From assembly GCA_002422025.1 (NCBI GenBank), contig DISV01000004.1, positions 102,578-166,577 of the forward strand: DNA of 64,000 nucleotides. Reading direction: 5' to 3'. A program made the position numbers and the translations under genes. Below the pieces are notes generated by a model. It searched no databases and had not been told where the DNA came from. It saw nothing but the letters and a program-made list of their open reading frames with translations. Origin of the DNA: Patescibacteria group bacterium UBA6201. GTDB taxonomy: Bacteria > Patescibacteriota > Minisyncoccia > Phycocordibacterales > UBA918. Position 1 is the stretch's first letter, and every line of letters starts with the position of its first letter. Shown here piece by piece: positions 4,984-47,399 of this stretch.

Positions 4984-5162
4984 ACGTGAGAATGAGATTC
5001 AGCCCAGCAATCATAAAATTAACAAACAGTTCAAGTAACTGTAGCAAGAAGTTGAGAAATGATTTGATGATGGTAATAGCACTGTCCATAAACAGATTTT
5101 ATCATACACACCTTGAGACAATATTGTGTATTAGGGAAATCAGATGCCTCACCTAGCACATA

Positions 5163-5528
5163 GAAAACCGCCTAATGGCGGCTTTTCTATTGCGCGAGCG
5201 AAGGGACTTGGTCACGAATATTTTCCTGCGTAAAATTTCTCGACCCCACCTCGCTTGCCTACGGCATCGCTCCGGCCTTCAAGCCCCTACACAAGCAAAG
5301 CAGTTTGCTTGTTTCGTTCGCGCAAACAAAAAAACGGCATGAAGCCGTATTTTGTTTGCGCGAGCGAAGGGACTTGAAACTTACAGTTTCGGTACACCTT
5401 TTGGCTGTTTCTGTTCACAAGCTCCAGAAATATCTCAAAAGGTCTTCAAGTCCCTACACAAAAGTCTCCCAGATTTTTGTTTCGCTCGCACAAAGTAAAA
5501 GCCCCCTAGTGGGGACTTTTATACTTTG
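5163..5528 (-). repeat. Three tandem modules (hairpin plus 20-24 nt copy of the tRNA-Asp 3' end) downstream of tRNA-Asp
   Basis: gcgcgagcgaagggacttg occurs at 5193-5211 and 5359-5377 and again as the genuine tRNA 3' end at 5528-5546; each copy is preceded by a GC hairpin; there are also inverted degenerate acceptor copies (cgttcgcgcaaac). Confidence 0.6.
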
Positions 5529-5602
5529 CGCGAGCGAAGGGACTTGAACCCTCAACCTCTGCCGTGACAGGGCAGCGCTCTAACCAGTTGAGCTACGCCC
5601 GC
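5529..5602 (-). tRNA. tRNA-Asp (anticodon GUC)
   Basis: Acceptor GCGGGCG/CGCTCGC, D-arm TAGCTCAACTGGTTAGAGC, anticodon loop CTGTCAC, T-arm GAGGGTTCAAGTCCCTT. Confidence 0.8.
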
Positions 5603-5800: not shown

Positions 5801-5801
5801 G

Positions 5802-5875
5802 TGTCGACGGGAGGGAATGATCCTCCGACCTCGGCTTTATGAGTGCCGCGCTCTAACCAACTGAGCTACGTCGAC
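5802..5875 (-). tRNA. tRNA-Met-like (anticodon CAU; elongator Met or lysidine-type Ile2, not distinguishable by eye)
   Basis: Acceptor GTCGACG/CGTCGAC, D-arm TAGCTCAGTTGGTTAGAGC, anticodon loop CTCATAA, unusual T-loop ATCATTC. Confidence 0.65.
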
Positions 5876-5914: not shown

Positions 5915-5957
5915 CGTAAAACAAAGAGCCACGCGATGCGCAGCTCTTTGTTTCTTG
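5915..5957 (-). terminator. Hairpin after the initiator tRNA
   Basis: aaacaaagagc-N12-gctctttgttt. Confidence 0.4.
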
Positions 5958-6028
5958 TTGCGGGGCCTGGAATTGAACCAGGGTCTGGAGGTTATGAGCC
6001 TCCCGAGGTACCACTCCTCTACCCCGCT
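5958..6028 (-). tRNA. Initiator tRNA-fMet-like (anticodon CAU)
   Basis: Acceptor AGCGGGG...CCCCGCA-A closely resembles E. coli tRNA-fMet (CGCGGGG...CCCCGCAA) with a 1:72 mismatch; anticodon loop CTCATAA; T-loop TTCAATT. Confidence 0.6.
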
Positions 6029-6227
6029 ATGTATACAACGTTAAATTGTCCAAAGATTGTACCACTTACTGCACAAAAGTCCAGCGATATATCTCCATAA
6101 AAGGAGACTAAAATTTAGGTGATTTCGAGGCGCGCGAGGAAAATGACACGAGCCGTATATATGGACATACGGTGAGTGTTATTTTACCGAAGCGCAACAA
6201 AGAAAGCGACAAATTTTTGGCTTCTGG

Positions 6228-6869
6228 CTAGATGAAGTTGAACTCGTCGAACACCATTTTATATTCAGCCACCGTCTGCGTGGCCTCCTTCTTGCTCAAA
6301 TTAAAATCCGCCCCTTCGTGTGCAATACGGTTTCTAACATTATGGGCGCGCCATGCTTGATTAATAGTCGTGAAAGAAGCCGGAGACACACTTTTAAGTT
6401 TTTCACTAATAGTAGCACCGGCGTATCCTAAAGTATTTAAAAGTTCGTCCAAAATTATATCGGCCTCAATAATGGCAAGCTTCCAGTCATTGGGTCGGTC
6501 ACTATCACTGTGAGTAAGTACGTCCTGCCAACGCATATTCTTCACATCTTTTCGATATATCTTAGTAAAAGCTTCCTCCTGCCTCTTTAAGATTTCAGCA
6601 AATACTTCACCAAGCTGGTTGTGGCGAATGTAAGCATAAATAATGCCAAAGATAAGCAAGAATGAAAGTAACCAAGACAGTACGACAAACACGCTCCATG
6701 CATCAGAAAGCCAAGCAAACACCGCGCCGGGTGACCAACCTGAAATCACTCCATTTGCACTACCGCCACTCGCAGCCCCACCACCAAATAAGAAAGCAAT
6801 TGCGTAATCTATGAACGCAAAGAAATCCAGCGAATACTCGTTAAACAAGATGTCGTTTGAATCGGGCAC
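6228..6869 (-). CDS. Membrane-anchored protein with C-terminal HEPN/DUF4145-like domain
   Basis: N-terminal Gly-rich region and TM segments, then a soluble domain containing AHNVRNRIAHEG (Rx4H HEPN motif, DUF4145-like). Confidence 0.5.
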   Translation of the reverse strand: MPDSNDILFNEYSLDFFAFIDYAIAFLFGGGAASGGSANGVISGWSPGAVFAWLSDAWSVFVVLSWLLSFLLIFGIIYAYIRHNQLGEVFAEILKRQEEAFTKIYRKDVKNMRWQDVLTHSDSDRPNDWKLAIIEADIILDELLNTLGYAGATISEKLKSVSPASFTTINQAWRAHNVRNRIAHEGADFNLSKKEATQTVAEYKMVFDEFNFI

Positions 6870-6900
6870 GGATTTATTTTAGCACAAAGCTAGGTCCAGA

Positions 6901-8322
6901 TTATTTACCCTGTCTATCATCAAAAACCTTTTTTCCAATATCAAAGAGCCTAGCTTCGCCATTATGTGGCGCAATATACTGCACTCCAACTGGTAGCATC
7001 TTACCTTCCCTGTCCACCTCCTTCATCGGGAGACTCATTGCAGGCACACCAGTGAGGTTCACAGGTACAGTGAAGATGTCCTGACGATACATTGATAGTG
7101 GATCTTCCTTTTCTCCCAATTTAAAGGCTGGAGTCGGCGCAGTTGGTGTAATAACGAGGTCAACATTAGTGAAGACGTGAGACAGCTCTTCGCGCATCAA
7201 AGTGCGTACGGCTTCAGCCTTACCATAATAGGCATCGTAGTATCCAGAGGAAAGCACATAGGTACCGAGGAGTATGCGTCGCTTAGCCTCTCTGCCAAAG
7301 CCGTGCGCACGTGACTCAAGGTAGGTATCAAGCAAATCATTACCTTCTTTACGTACACCATAGCGGATACCATCATAACGAGCTAGGTTTGATGACACTT
7401 CAGCCGGCATCACGATGTAGTAAGCAGCCAAACCAGCCTCAAAGAGTGGCAGCTCAATATCTACGATTTTATGTCCGTCTTTCTTTAGTGACTCAAGATG
7501 GGCCTCGAAACGTTCCATCACGTCTACGTCGATACCGTCTTTCAAAAAAGCGCGCGGCACGCCAATAGTGTAGCTTTCTTTGACTGGCACATCGGGATAA
7601 GTGTCTGGAGAAATGGTAGTCATATCATTTTCATCCTGTCCTTTCATTACATTGAAAACTACCTCTGCATCCGCTACAGAGTTTGCGAGCACACCCGCCT
7701 GATCAAGCGAAGAACCCATCGCCATCAGACCAAAGCGTGACACTGCACCATATGTCGGTTTCATTCCCACTAGCCCACAATAGCTGGCAGGCTGACGAAT
7801 AGAACCACCAGTATCCGTACCGATAGCAATTGGTACGGCCTCCATTGCAACCGCGGCAGCCGAACCGCCACTTGATCCTCCTGGCACCCGACTAGTGTCG
7901 TGAGGGTTCTTAGTGGGTCCAAAGGCAGAATTCTCGGTCGACCCACCCATCGCAAATTCATCGAGATTAGTACTACCGACAATGACAGCACCGGCGGCCT
8001 TTAATTTTTTGATAATAGTAGCGTCATAGGAAGCTATATAATTTTCCAAAATTAAAGACGCGGCAGTCGCCCTTTTTCCCTTTATTAAAATATTGTTCTT
8101 CACTGCAATCGGTACACCGAGGAGTGGTTTTGCTTCGTAGTCTTTTTTAGCAAATGCTAGAGTAGCACTCTCTGCCACTTCTTTAGCGTCGTCATACACA
8201 TCTAAAAAAGCGTGGATTTCTTTATCCTTTTCATTTATCACTTTCAGTGTTTTTGCTAAAGTCTCCGATGGAGTCTCACTACCATCAATAAACTTCTGCC
8301 TTAATTGTGAGATGGTCAACAT
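6901..8322 (-). CDS. gatA: Glutamyl-tRNA(Gln) amidotransferase subunit A
   Basis: Amidase signature GGSSGGSAAAVA, 473 aa, followed by gatC. Confidence 0.9.
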   Translation of the reverse strand: MLTISQLRQKFIDGSETPSETLAKTLKVINEKDKEIHAFLDVYDDAKEVAESATLAFAKKDYEAKPLLGVPIAVKNNILIKGKRATAASLILENYIASYDATIIKKLKAAGAVIVGSTNLDEFAMGGSTENSAFGPTKNPHDTSRVPGGSSGGSAAAVAMEAVPIAIGTDTGGSIRQPASYCGLVGMKPTYGAVSRFGLMAMGSSLDQAGVLANSVADAEVVFNVMKGQDENDMTTISPDTYPDVPVKESYTIGVPRAFLKDGIDVDVMERFEAHLESLKKDGHKIVDIELPLFEAGLAAYYIVMPAEVSSNLARYDGIRYGVRKEGNDLLDTYLESRAHGFGREAKRRILLGTYVLSSGYYDAYYGKAEAVRTLMREELSHVFTNVDLVITPTAPTPAFKLGEKEDPLSMYRQDIFTVPVNLTGVPAMSLPMKEVDREGKMLPVGVQYIAPHNGEARLFDIGKKVFDDRQGK

Positions 8323-8324
8323 AA

Positions 8325-8618
8325 TTATGAGTCTGGATTAAGAATCTTTTTGACCTTTAAGTAATCACCAATCTTTTCTGGAAAAGCTGATACTAAAGCA
8401 TCTATATCTTCGAGAGACGTTTCCACAACCTCATCCTCGCGCAACACGTTCTTAACGACCCCTGGGACTTTCTTCAAATCTAAATCAGAAACAATCCGAT
8501 TGACTGCACCAACATACTCCAAAATGGACTCTATTTCAGTCTGAAATTTGGCTACCTCGTTGTCACTCATCTTCACACGAGATAGGTTTCCTAGCTGTAA
8601 TATCTCTTCCTTAGTCAT
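8325..8618 (-). CDS. gatC: Asp/Glu-tRNA amidotransferase subunit C
   Basis: MTKEEILQLGNLSRVKMSDNEVAKFQTEIESILEYV is a typical GatC; start moved to the internal Met. Confidence 0.75.
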   Translation of the reverse strand: MTKEEILQLGNLSRVKMSDNEVAKFQTEIESILEYVGAVNRIVSDLDLKKVPGVVKNVLREDEVVETSLEDIDALVSAFPEKIGDYLKVKKILNPDS

Positions 8619-8708
8619 CCTGTTGAAATTATTGCTTAAGCGATTATTTATCCAAAACGGGTCGTCCGCCCCATTTTCCATGAGGGACAAGTTATTGGCA
8701 TCATAGCA

Positions 8709-10874
<2,166 letters not shown>

Positions 10875-29052: not shown

Positions 29053-29140
29053 ACATCCACAGTATAGAGCATGTGTAATACTCTGTCTCCGCGAACAAAA
29101 CAGAATCACCCAACACTTGTGTGTTGGGCTGATTGTTTTG

Positions 29141-29227
29141 CGGAGGATGTGAGATTCGAACTCACGGGCAGTTTTACCCGCCGGCGGTTTAGTAAACCGC
29201 TGGTTTAAACCACTCACCCAATCCTCC
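29141..29227 (-). tRNA. Type II (long variable arm) Ser-like tRNA with apparent anticodon ACU
   Basis: Acceptor GGAGGAT/ATCCTCC, 3-bp D-stem GGT/ACC, anticodon arm GCGGT-TTACTAA-ACCGC, variable stem GGCGG/CTGCC, T-arm GTGAG-TTCGAAT-CTCAC. Confidence 0.5.
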
Positions 29228-34792: not shown

Positions 34793-34866
34793 CCGCCCTT
34801 AGCTCAGTTGGTTAGAGCACAGAGCTTATACCTCTGGGGTCCTTGGTTCGAGTCCAAGAGGGCGGA
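34793..34866 (+). tRNA. tRNA-Ile (anticodon UAU)
   Basis: Acceptor CCGCCCT/AGGGCGG, D-arm TAGCTCAGTTGGTTAGAGC, anticodon arm CAGAG-CTTATAC-CTCTG, T-arm CTTGG-TTCGAGT-CCAAG. Confidence 0.7.
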
Positions 34867-34892
34867 CGGAATTTTTAATTTTCTTATACCTG

Positions 34893-46034: not shown

Positions 46035-47399
46035 TTAAAACTCAATGTCCACGACCTCGTTCGGACTTGGTGCTACAGCATTAACACCAAGGTAGTCACG
46101 TAGGCGCTGAACCAAGAAAAGTGAGGAGCGCTCCTCTCCCATGGCCACAAATACCTGTTTGGCCTTCTCGCCACCCTTTGCTACAAAGCTCACTAGTTGG
46201 TCTCGGTCAGCGTGACCGGACCAGCCCTGAATACTAGCGACCTCGGCCTTAACCACAACTTTCTTGCCATCAATCTTTACGGAAGGTGCACCATCTTTGA
46301 GACGGCGCCCGATACTACCGACAGATTGATAACCAACGAGTAACAGAATGGTCTTTGGGTTAGACAGAAAATTCTGTTCATGTTTTAAGATACGTCCACC
46401 GTGAGACATACCGCTGCCGGCAATAATCACTTTAGCGCCCTTAGTGCGACTAATCGCTTCCGAATCCGAAACGGTACGGGTTAGTTTGAGTTTTGGAAAA
46501 TCAAAGACATTGTCCCCTTTCTTTATTTGCTCGCGTACTGAATCTCTTAAATATTTAGTTCGTTCTCTATAAATATCGGTCACTTCTATAGCTAGTGGTG
46601 AATCCAGAAATACCGGCACCGGCTCTATCTTGCCACTTTCTACCATATTATTAATTTCAAATAACATTCCTTGGGTACGCTCAAGTGAAAAGGCCGGTAT
46701 GATGAGTGTCCCTTTTTGCTTTATTGTCTTCTCCAAGTAGCCAAGTAGCAATTCACTCCTCTCATTCACCTCTTCGTGCAATCTGTCACCATACACGCTC
46801 TCCATTACCAAGTAGTCGTAACCAGTTGGAATAACTGGAGGATTAAGTAATGGTTGCGGGTCGTTTCCAATGTCACCAGAAAATGTGATGTGGCGTCCGG
46901 CACGTTCTAAAGTAATAGAGGCTGAACCGAGAATATGTCCAACATCGGTGAACACGGCCGACACGTCATCTTTAAGAGCTAAGGTAGTTTCGTATTCTAC
47001 TGGCTTCCATAGACCCAAGGCCGCGGCAATATCTTTTTCTTCATAAAGTAAGGGAGTACCGTACTTTTCTGACTCAAAGGACATCACCTGGAAAGCGTCA
47101 CGAAGCATCACACCAGCAAGTGCGAGTGTTGGTTCAGTCGAATAGATAGTTCCTTTAAAGCCGTCCCGCACTAACTTTGGAATACGACCAATATGATCAG
47201 CGTGCGCGTGTGTCACTAAAAGAAAATCCACCAACGAAGGGTCATAAGAAAATGCCTTATGGTTTTCCTTTTCTTCAAAGCGATCACCCTGAACCAATCC
47301 ACAATCCACTACGATTCTTGAGCCTCCAGTATCAAGATGAAAATTCGCTCCCGTAACACTACCCACACCGCCATAAAAACCAAGTTTAGATTTACTCAT
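46035..47399 (-). CDS. Beta-CASP metallo-beta-lactamase-fold ribonuclease (RNase J-like)
   Basis: HAHADHIG MBL motif and beta-CASP region; 454 aa. Confidence 0.7.
   Translation of the reverse strand: MSKSKLGFYGGVGSVTGANFHLDTGGSRIVVDCGLVQGDRFEEKENHKAFSYDPSLVDFLLVTHAHADHIGRIPKLVRDGFKGTIYSTEPTLALAGVMLRDAFQVMSFESEKYGTPLLYEEKDIAAALGLWKPVEYETTLALKDDVSAVFTDVGHILGSASITLERAGRHITFSGDIGNDPQPLLNPPVIPTGYDYLVMESVYGDRLHEEVNERSELLLGYLEKTIKQKGTLIIPAFSLERTQGMLFEINNMVESGKIEPVPVFLDSPLAIEVTDIYRERTKYLRDSVREQIKKGDNVFDFPKLKLTRTVSDSEAISRTKGAKVIIAGSGMSHGGRILKHEQNFLSNPKTILLLVGYQSVGSIGRRLKDGAPSVKIDGKKVVVKAEVASIQGWSGHADRDQLVSFVAKGGEKAKQVFVAMGEERSSLFLVQRLRDYLGVNAVAPSPNEVVDIEF

Follow-up and report, generated by a model that had tools for sequence, protein, structure and literature searches.

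A membrane-anchored putative HEPN RNase at a fixed housekeeping locus of Parcubacteria

We analysed a 64,000-nucleotide stretch of the genome of Patescibacteria group bacterium UBA6201 (contig DISV01000004.1, positions 102,578 to 166,577; hereafter the window), focusing on a gene at window positions 6228–6869 on the minus strand. Its product, here called the TM-HEPN protein (TM, transmembrane), carries a C-terminal domain that resembles HEPN RNases. On balance, we lean towards reading it as a membrane-anchored HEPN RNase encoded by a core gene that Parcubacteria (class Paceibacteria/Minisyncoccia of the candidate phyla radiation, CPR) inherit vertically and that closes a conserved ligA–gatC–gatA–X block, and we consider a core physiological role somewhat more probable than one in defence. 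A call as a defence or toxin gene does not fit, because the gene occupies a single locus, is syntenic across the class, is strongly constrained and is absent from the mobile elements searched. To our knowledge, the HEPN RNases described in bacteria belong, with few exceptions, to mobile toxin, CRISPR and abortive-infection systems, and Parcubacteria have genomes of roughly 1 Mb that retain little that is dispensable. Here, an intact HEPN active site is found in thousands of protein clusters and is vertically inherited at one chromosomal position across Parcubacteria.

A constrained gene of unannotated type

The coding sequence is complete (213 residues, GTG start, stop codon at 6228–6230), and its boundaries are exactly those of the open reading frame (ORF) claimed in an earlier note, which had been made from the letters of this DNA alone. 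It is a real gene under strong purifying selection, with a ratio of nonsynonymous to synonymous substitution rates (dN/dS) of 0.06 for the whole gene and 0.03 for the C-terminal domain when compared with the locus of the closest species (L008). The start position is common to homologues, whose MPD, MRD or MYD N termini align with the start of the window protein. From the N to the C terminus, the protein consists of an acidic tail, a weak hydrophobic helix, a Gly-rich loop, a robust TM helix, a helical stalk and a 108-residue domain. Across 80 species-level relatives, mean identity to the window protein was 56% in the C-terminal domain, 36% in the TM region, 27% in the linker and 23% in the N-terminal tail. 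Public annotation lists family members as 'hypothetical protein', and NCBI names some of the long forms described below 'GW dipeptide domain-containing protein'; the HEPN-like domain of the family is covered by no Pfam or NCBIfam model.

The C-terminal domain has HEPN anatomy

The C-terminal domain (residues 106–213; 6231–6554, minus strand) very probably has a HEPN fold. An AlphaFold2 model of the domain (predicted local distance difference test (pLDDT) score of 94) contains four helices, with helix 1 at residues 107–121, helix 2 at 126–147, an insert at 148–168, helix 3 at 169–188 and helix 4 at 193–209. By definition, a HEPN domain consists of two α-hairpins, with helices 2 and 3 separated by a variable insert, and has an Rx4–6H motif that ends helix 3; the R is followed by a polar residue (N, D or H), and helix 2 contributes a conserved acid (Anantharaman et al. 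2013, PMC3710099). As modelled, the window domain agrees with this description in its insert, in the polar N180 that follows R179 and in the acids of helix 2. The motif that the earlier note had picked out as RNRIAH is indeed an Rx4H motif, R179-N180-R-I-A183-H184 (AGAAACCGTATTGCACAC; 6318–6335, minus strand), near the C-terminal end of helix 3. Helix 2 carries, within WKLAIIEAD, the residues E135-A-D137 (6459–6467, minus strand), whose acids are predicted to lie opposite the Rx4H motif.

These residues are exceptionally well kept. R179, N180, A183 and H184 were invariant in all 80 complete species-level relatives, and the RN..AH motif was present in 149 of 149 cluster representatives and likewise invariant in a 140-sequence alignment (A4). 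Among 81 sequences, the invariant positions were W129, E135, D137, W173, H176, R179, N180, A183 and H184, with both helix-2 acids retained in 81/81. An Rx4H motif is weak evidence by itself, because it appeared in 14% of shuffles of the window protein (RNxxxH in 1%). We nevertheless regard it as more than a chance occurrence, because the residues are invariant, the site is HEPN-specific and sub-threshold matches to hidden Markov models (HMMs) concentrate on HEPN models. In our estimate, the TM-HEPN protein is probably an active RNase.

Fold comparison pointed in the same direction. A Foldseek search with the domain model ranked HEPN proteins first, with 2hsb and 5yep at the top by probability (0.92–0.93) and TM-scores of up to 0.70. 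Foldseek with the full-length model was uninformative owing to the long TM helix. Proteins with a related fold, behind the leading ones, were the HEPN domains of Roquin and sacsin, the AMPylated HEPN toxin 8xdj, Csm6, Csx1, KNTase, 7ae2, YutE, HI0074, TT1696, MtlR and AbiA and, lower in the ranking, GlnE, DrrA, LsoA, RnlA, Las1 and HepS. Fold, anatomy and conservation thus support the structural call of the earlier note, a membrane-tethered HEPN protein with an intact Rx4H motif. Two other conserved features lie in the domain: a second pair of basic and His residues, R113-x6-H120 (RWQDVLTH; 6510–6533), in helix 1 (R in 71/81 sequences, H in 78/81), and the invariant H176, three residues ahead of R179. 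Neither H176 nor R113/H120 figures in the standard description of the HEPN site.

Sequence-profile matches of the family to HEPN models all stayed below threshold. Among 140 representatives, the recurrent sub-threshold Pfam matches fell on HEPN models only (HEPN_Swt1, 56; RiboL-PSP, 23; pEK499_p136, 8; DUF4145, 7; Cthe2314, 7), with best E-values of 0.0011 for HEPN_Swt1 and 0.0048 for DUF4145. Weak PADLOC matches went to CARF_HEPN (about 11 of 140 members), Cas13a, RTasHEPN and Csx1. A single-sequence PHROGs search with the window protein was empty, and three family profiles (A1, A2 and A5) gave only chance matches among PDB sequences (TM helices of CSC1, glutamate dehydrogenase and MukF). The HEPN similarity that the earlier note expected of a profile search was therefore found in part: fold comparison ranked HEPN proteins first, and the HMM matches stayed below their thresholds.

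The nearest Pfam model is HEPN_Swt1 (PF18731), of the Abi2/Swt1 clade, and the match of one relative (P0238) spans profile positions 9–108 of 115; however, no family member attains the 27.5-bit cut-off, and the window protein itself is unmatched. A TM-linked Abi2/Swt1 group, exemplified by Salmonella STY4199, has been noted (Anantharaman et al. 2013, PMC3710099). That group is proteobacterial and has an N-terminal globular α-helical domain; it lacks a GW/SH3b ectodomain and does not occupy a core locus of Parcubacteria. The label 'DUF4145-like' used in the earlier note was not upheld. PF13643 (DUF4145) matched none of 31 close relatives at E ≤ 10 and 7 of 140 wider relatives, all below the cut-off. 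DUF4145 does belong to the HEPN clan, and its listed fusions to TM and SH3 segments in Firmicutes recall the TM–GW/SH3b–TM–HEPN relatives of the window protein (PMC3710099). But in RAZR (PD-T7-4), the sole characterized DUF4145 RNase, the catalytic R146 and H154 form an Rx7H motif rather than the Rx4H seen here, and DUF4145 proteins are antiphage factors located beside restriction–modification (R-M) or defence genes, or fused to REase, helicase or Zn-ribbon domains, whereas the neighbours of the TM-HEPN family are pseudopilins, ligA, gatC, gatA and tRNAs. Judging from these comparisons, we regard the TM-HEPN family as a previously undescribed one that lies near Swt1/Abi2 and DUF4145 within the HEPN clan.

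A large Parcubacteria family at one locus

A search of 5.8 billion proteins returned 888 relatives, all of them full length and none with a precomputed Pfam domain. Every named one belongs to the CPR, and the closest relatives are labelled Kaiserbacteria or Nomurabacteria, which assigns the window to a Parcubacteria genome. When the domain was searched as a profile, 2,785 clusters at 50% identity matched among 1.84 billion representatives (494 at E ≤ 1e-30); in all matched clusters the HEPN domain was at the C terminus, and it follows the last TM helix in every form. When one genome per GTDB species was scanned with two peptide patterns, the gene was found in at least 223 species, a lower bound, with titles that were overwhelmingly Patescibacteria or Parcubacteria. 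The few records with other labels look like automatic or bin mislabels.

The position of the gene is equally uniform. In each of the 87 loci examined, the gene immediately upstream, in the same orientation, encodes GatA, and GatC, LigA and pseudopilins precede GatA wherever the contig reaches; the usual gap between gatA and the TM-HEPN gene is 9–50 nt. Forms of 450 and 696 residues occupy the same slot after gatA, so the neighbourhood conservation that the earlier note had proposed to check extends to the long forms. Genes farther downstream vary between loci.

Among the short members, many are clearly two-TM proteins, and roughly one-fifth of the top 150 measure 280–696 residues. In these long forms, a basic N terminus is followed by TM1, an extracytoplasmic region, TM2, the stalk and the HEPN domain. 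The extracytoplasmic region carries one to six repeats of the pattern GP..G.RYWYVDFE.G.DGWV, which match the Pfam families SH3_3 and GW and are of the cell-wall-binding type; named hosts are Taylorbacteria, Zambryskibacteria, Wolfebacteria and Minisyncoccia. Relatives of 600–700 residues were considered as GatA–HEPN fusions, and this was ruled out: their N-terminal parts are TM1 and GW/SH3b repeats, and gatA stands upstream as a gene of its own. By comparison with its relatives, the window protein appears to be a minimal form in which the ectodomain has shrunk to the Gly-rich loop and TM1 has decayed.

One metagenome-assembled genome, JBNKWW01, contains two gatC–gatA–HEPN blocks (loci L013 and L026), the HEPN proteins of which share 52% and 42% identity with the window protein; ligA was detected upstream in L013 and not in L026. 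That gatCA is present twice in full points more to a mixed bin than to paralogy.

Membrane anchor and topology

The membrane part makes up about 40% of the protein, somewhat more than the N-terminal third assigned to it in the earlier note, which had also spoken of TM helices in the plural. Taking a Kyte–Doolittle (KD) value above 1.6 over a 19-residue window as TM strength, one helix is certain and a second is degenerate. The certain one, at residues ~52–82 (6624–6716, minus strand), ends in ...YAYIRH and contains the invariant W58; in the window protein it exceeds 1.6 for window centres 58–73, with a maximum of 2.62, and it was found in 80 of 80 relatives (mean 2.46, minimum 1.78). It belongs, in the AlphaFold model of the whole protein, to one continuous helix (residues 47–105, pLDDT ~90–96) that also includes the juxtamembrane stalk (residues 83–105; 6555–6623, minus strand), in which E98 is nearly invariant and which leads from the TM helix to the HEPN domain.

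The degenerate helix, LDFFAFIDYAIAFLFGG (residues 14–30; 6780–6830, minus strand), is the equivalent of TM1 by position. Its KD maximum is 1.53, it attains TM strength (KD ≥ 1.6) in only 14 of 80 relatives, and the full-length model has a helix at residues 16–29 with low pLDDT. It aligns with the true TM1 of the relatives with two TM helices (P0129, P0134, P0164 and P0172). The Gly-rich stretch that the earlier note saw near the N terminus corresponds to residues 28–40 (GGGAASGGSANG), a loop of variable length in alignment A1. The Gly/Ser-rich variable loop as a whole spans residues 31–47 (6729–6779, minus strand), forms a gap region in that alignment, with pLDDT below 50 for residues 29–40, and lies at the site of the zero to six GW/SH3b-like repeats of relatives. 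Ahead of these elements is the acidic peptide MPDSNDILFNEYS (residues 1–13; 6831–6869, minus strand), delimited by alignment A1 and the N termini of 87 loci. The peptide has 0 K/R and 5–6 D/E. A Kaiserbacteria-like clade keeps the pattern MPDxNDIxFNxY and a sister clade has a Thr/Ser-rich tail instead; across relatives the tail holds almost no K or R (mean 1.0) and a mean of 5.7 D or E.

The HEPN domain is predicted to face the cytoplasm, in keeping with the acidic, K/R-poor N-terminal tail and because the relatives with two TM helices have a basic N terminus and carry GW/SH3_3 repeats between the helices, which by the positive-inside rule puts the HEPN domain inside the cell.

Proposed function and competing explanations

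In the reading we prefer, the HEPN domain would lie on the cytoplasmic side of the inner membrane, tethered through the TM helix and stalk, and would act as a metal-independent endoribonuclease with an active site formed by the pairing of two HEPN domains, by analogy with other HEPN enzymes that have an intact Rx4H motif. The anchor and stalk, together with the ectodomain in relatives, would control this pairing. Two modes of action can be envisaged: constitutive RNA turnover or processing at the membrane, in a layout like that of RNase Y, or RNA cleavage switched by an envelope or cell-contact signal, with a logic like that of Ire1. We speculate that tRNA is a candidate substrate, because gatCA and tRNA genes are conserved neighbours and many HEPN enzymes cut tRNA, although the neighbourhood may be plain synteny. 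If the protein is an active RNase, it would be a candidate for a missing RNA-turnover or RNA-processing enzyme of CPR bacteria or, alternatively, for a membrane receptor that signals by cutting RNA.

The second of these possibilities can be taken further, to a one-protein transmembrane device for RNA-level signalling in the Parcubacteria core genome, akin to a bacterial Ire1, which we hold to be a tentative idea and a fairly unlikely one. An outward module (GW/SH3b repeats in many lineages, a short acidic tail here) would sense the state of the envelope or contact with a host, and sensing would bring the cytoplasmic HEPN domains together. Once paired, they might cut specific RNAs, possibly tRNAs or mRNA–tRNA transcripts of their own neighbourhood, so that these ultra-small episymbionts would adjust translation to their attachment or to the state of the envelope.

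Several observations weigh against a core membrane RNase. The window protein has no match in Pfam or NCBIfam at E ≤ 10 and none among PDB sequences, and no HMM match passes its curated threshold for any relative. The E-values of the HEPN matches in Foldseek are not significant (0.3–1.3). Synteny is no proof of a housekeeping role, as the region is syntenic as a whole, pilins and tRNAs included. RNase activity, dimerization and topology are all inferred, and Csx28 is a precedent for a TM-HEPN protein that works as a pore and not as a nuclease (bioRxiv 10.1101/2021.11.02.466367).

Because neither profile searches above threshold nor Foldseek E-values (all above 0.1) identify the fold, and Rx4H is frequent in shuffled sequence, the domain could in principle be an unrelated four-helix bundle with a chance motif. 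We consider this very improbable in view of the invariant residues and of the HEPN anatomy described above. A HEPN fold need not be catalytic, and the protein might instead bind RNA, a nucleotide or a partner as a membrane regulator or scaffold, in the manner of MtlR or of the HEPN domains of nucleotidyltransferases. Such families typically lose the Rx4–6H motif (PMC3710099), whereas R-N-x3-H and the E/D pair are invariant here across a family of thousands of clusters, which makes this explanation improbable. We find equally little to recommend a Csx28-like pore or membrane-perturbing oligomer, a face-to-back ring that would act on membrane potential with Rx4H in a structural role. Csx28 does have nearly the same layout, in 177 residues, and assembles into a pore of eight subunits in which no canonical HEPN dimer is formed (bioRxiv 10.1101/2021.11.02.466367). 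Against a pore, however, the R, N and H of the motif and the acids of helix 2 are all invariant, as expected for catalysis, and no cas13b or CRISPR genes lie nearby.

Defence or abortive infection deserves more weight than these, in the form of a lineage-wide domesticated membrane sensor-RNase that stays off until phage attack or envelope damage and then stops translation by RNA cleavage; activated by oligomerization, it would need no antitoxin. Most prokaryotic HEPN RNases with an intact Rx4H motif act in defence or toxin–antitoxin systems (PMC3710099; RAZR). The outward part is the most variable, both in the low identity of the N-terminal tail relative to the HEPN domain and in an ectodomain of zero to six repeats, as would fit surface arms races; the weak PADLOC matches go to HEPN defence models; and the adjacent tRNA genes are integration hot spots, with a recombinase in one related locus (L004). 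We nonetheless think this explanation rather unlikely, and the stand-alone defence or toxin gene envisaged in the earlier note was not borne out. The gene has a fixed place in a housekeeping block in every one of the 87 loci and in the long forms, dN/dS is as low as 0.03–0.06, and no relatives were found among 2.9 million viral contigs of IMG/VR, 50,697 phage records and 72,556 plasmid records. No PADLOC family (PADLOC-DB v2) matches consistently; a hit to PycTM (E 0.0055) covered nothing but the TM region, was seen in 1 of 140 relatives and was set aside as compositional. Neither the window nor the related loci examined contain neighbouring genes for a minimal nucleotidyltransferase (MNT), an antitoxin, R-M or CRISPR, in line with the earlier observation that no antitoxin ORF is adjacent. 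A core membrane-anchored RNase therefore remains the reading we prefer.

Relation to known systems

Ire1 combines a sensor ectodomain, a TM helix and a cytosolic HEPN-type RNase activated by oligomerization, and RNase Y couples an N-terminal TM helix and a coiled coil to an endoribonuclease for bulk RNA turnover at the membrane. Both are functional analogies: the TM-HEPN protein has no kinase domain, and its homology to Ire1 and RNase L (KEN domain) is limited to the HEPN fold; it lacks KH and HD domains and shares no homology with RNase Y. Ire1 was treated together with C6orf70 in the 2013 survey, which also predicted that active HEPN domains serve as cytoplasmic modules of inner-membrane proteins, in three TM-associated groups (PMC3710099).

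Canonical small HEPN proteins for comparison are HEPN-T (AF0298, 2hsb; TTHA0636, 1wwp) and the DUF86/HepT toxins (SO_3166, 5yep; 7ae2; 8xdj). These are soluble proteins with a mobile or patchy distribution, and their usual partner is an antitoxin of the minimal nucleotidyltransferase type, whereas the TM-HEPN protein is anchored and encoded at a fixed core locus. No sequence similarity was detectable between HEPN-T/HepT and the TM-HEPN family, and no HEPN–MNT pairing was seen, with no MNT in the window or related loci. The only NTP_transferase nearby, in locus L001, belongs to a sugar-nucleotidyltransferase-type Pfam family, is encoded on the opposite strand and is not conserved.

Csx28, a type VI-B accessory protein and the only experimentally characterized TM-HEPN protein that we found, is a pore. 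It resembles the window protein in having a single N-terminal TM helix and a cytoplasmic four-helix HEPN-like bundle (177 versus 213 residues), but its HEPN motif is divergent, whereas the TM-HEPN domain is canonical and its locus is without CRISPR genes; no cas genes were found among the window ORFs examined or in related loci. Membrane-associated HEPN proteins are thus of a known kind, through the 2013 predictions and Csx28. What is new is the size of the family, its restriction to Parcubacteria, its fixed housekeeping locus, the series of GW/SH3b ectodomains and the absence of annotation; no description of the family was found in searches of the literature on HEPN proteins in Patescibacteria and on RNase Y in CPR bacteria.

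Genes, tRNAs and repeats around the locus

The TM-HEPN gene follows gatA, which encodes an amidase (6901–8322, minus strand; Pfam Amidase, E 2.4e-141), after a 31-nt spacer. Upstream of gatA on the same strand are gatC (8325–8690), assigned by Pfam GatC and synteny, and ligA (8709–10868), the Pfam-assigned NAD-dependent DNA ligase gene that heads the block. The listed starts of both probably lie too far upstream: gatC, with a TTG start, measures 121 residues compared with 93–97 in relatives, and ligA 719 compared with 661–676, its first ~45 residues looking like a hydrophobic artefact. Pseudopilin genes and a prepilin peptidase gene lie upstream of ligA in the window, followed by the rest of a type IV pilus cluster. 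In classical gatCAB operons, the slot after gatA is taken by gatB. Here the TM-HEPN gene follows gatC–gatA instead, and none of the 12 window ORFs of at least 330 residues is gatB-like; gatB is presumably encoded elsewhere in the genome. Kinship of the TM-HEPN protein to GatB, which shares this operon slot, was considered and no similarity was found. The remainder of the window is ordinary core chromosome, with GDH, malic enzyme, RecG, FtsH, tmRNA, a β-CASP RNase and SecY. The β-CASP/metallo-β-lactamase RNase (RNase J or CPSF-like, 454 residues; 46035–47399, minus strand) is relevant to the RNase inventory of the genome.

The tRNA cluster and dispersed repeat that the earlier note reported beside the gene are both present downstream. 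Three tRNA genes were called by ARAGORN on the minus strand: a 72-nt tRNA-CAT (5957–6028; 59 bits with the Rfam tRNA model), 200 nt downstream of the TM-HEPN gene, tRNA-Met (5801–5875) and tRNA-Asp (5528–5602). The tRNA-CAT has initiator-like features, an A1.A72 mismatch and an A11:U24 pair, but two G-C pairs rather than three beside the anticodon loop. A tRNA-CAT of 73 nt or less lay within 400 nt downstream in 44 of 75 related loci, 29 on the same strand and 15 inverted.

The repeat, a 24-nt element TTTGCGCGAGCGAAGGGACTTGAA, occurs three times at a spacing of 166–170 nt (5156–5548). Its third copy is the 3' end of tRNA-Asp; therefore the other two are duplicated 3' fragments of that tRNA. 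The repeat units at 5156–5210 and 5322–5376 each contain a terminator-like hairpin (5168–5181 and 5334–5348), and they look like remnants of att sites or a tandem duplication beside the tRNA. In locus L004, a large serine recombinase gene (Resolvase, Recombinase and Zn_ribbon_recom) and small ORFs lie just past the downstream tRNAs (6042–7634 of that locus), which points to the tRNA cluster as an integration site and marks the edge of the syntenic block. Elsewhere in the window (29140–29227 and 34793–34867), ARAGORN called two tRNAs whose anticodons are unusual for bacteria: a tRNA-Ser of anticodon ACT (A34), which has a normal tRNA-Ser-GCT as its neighbour, and a tRNA-Ile of anticodon TAT.

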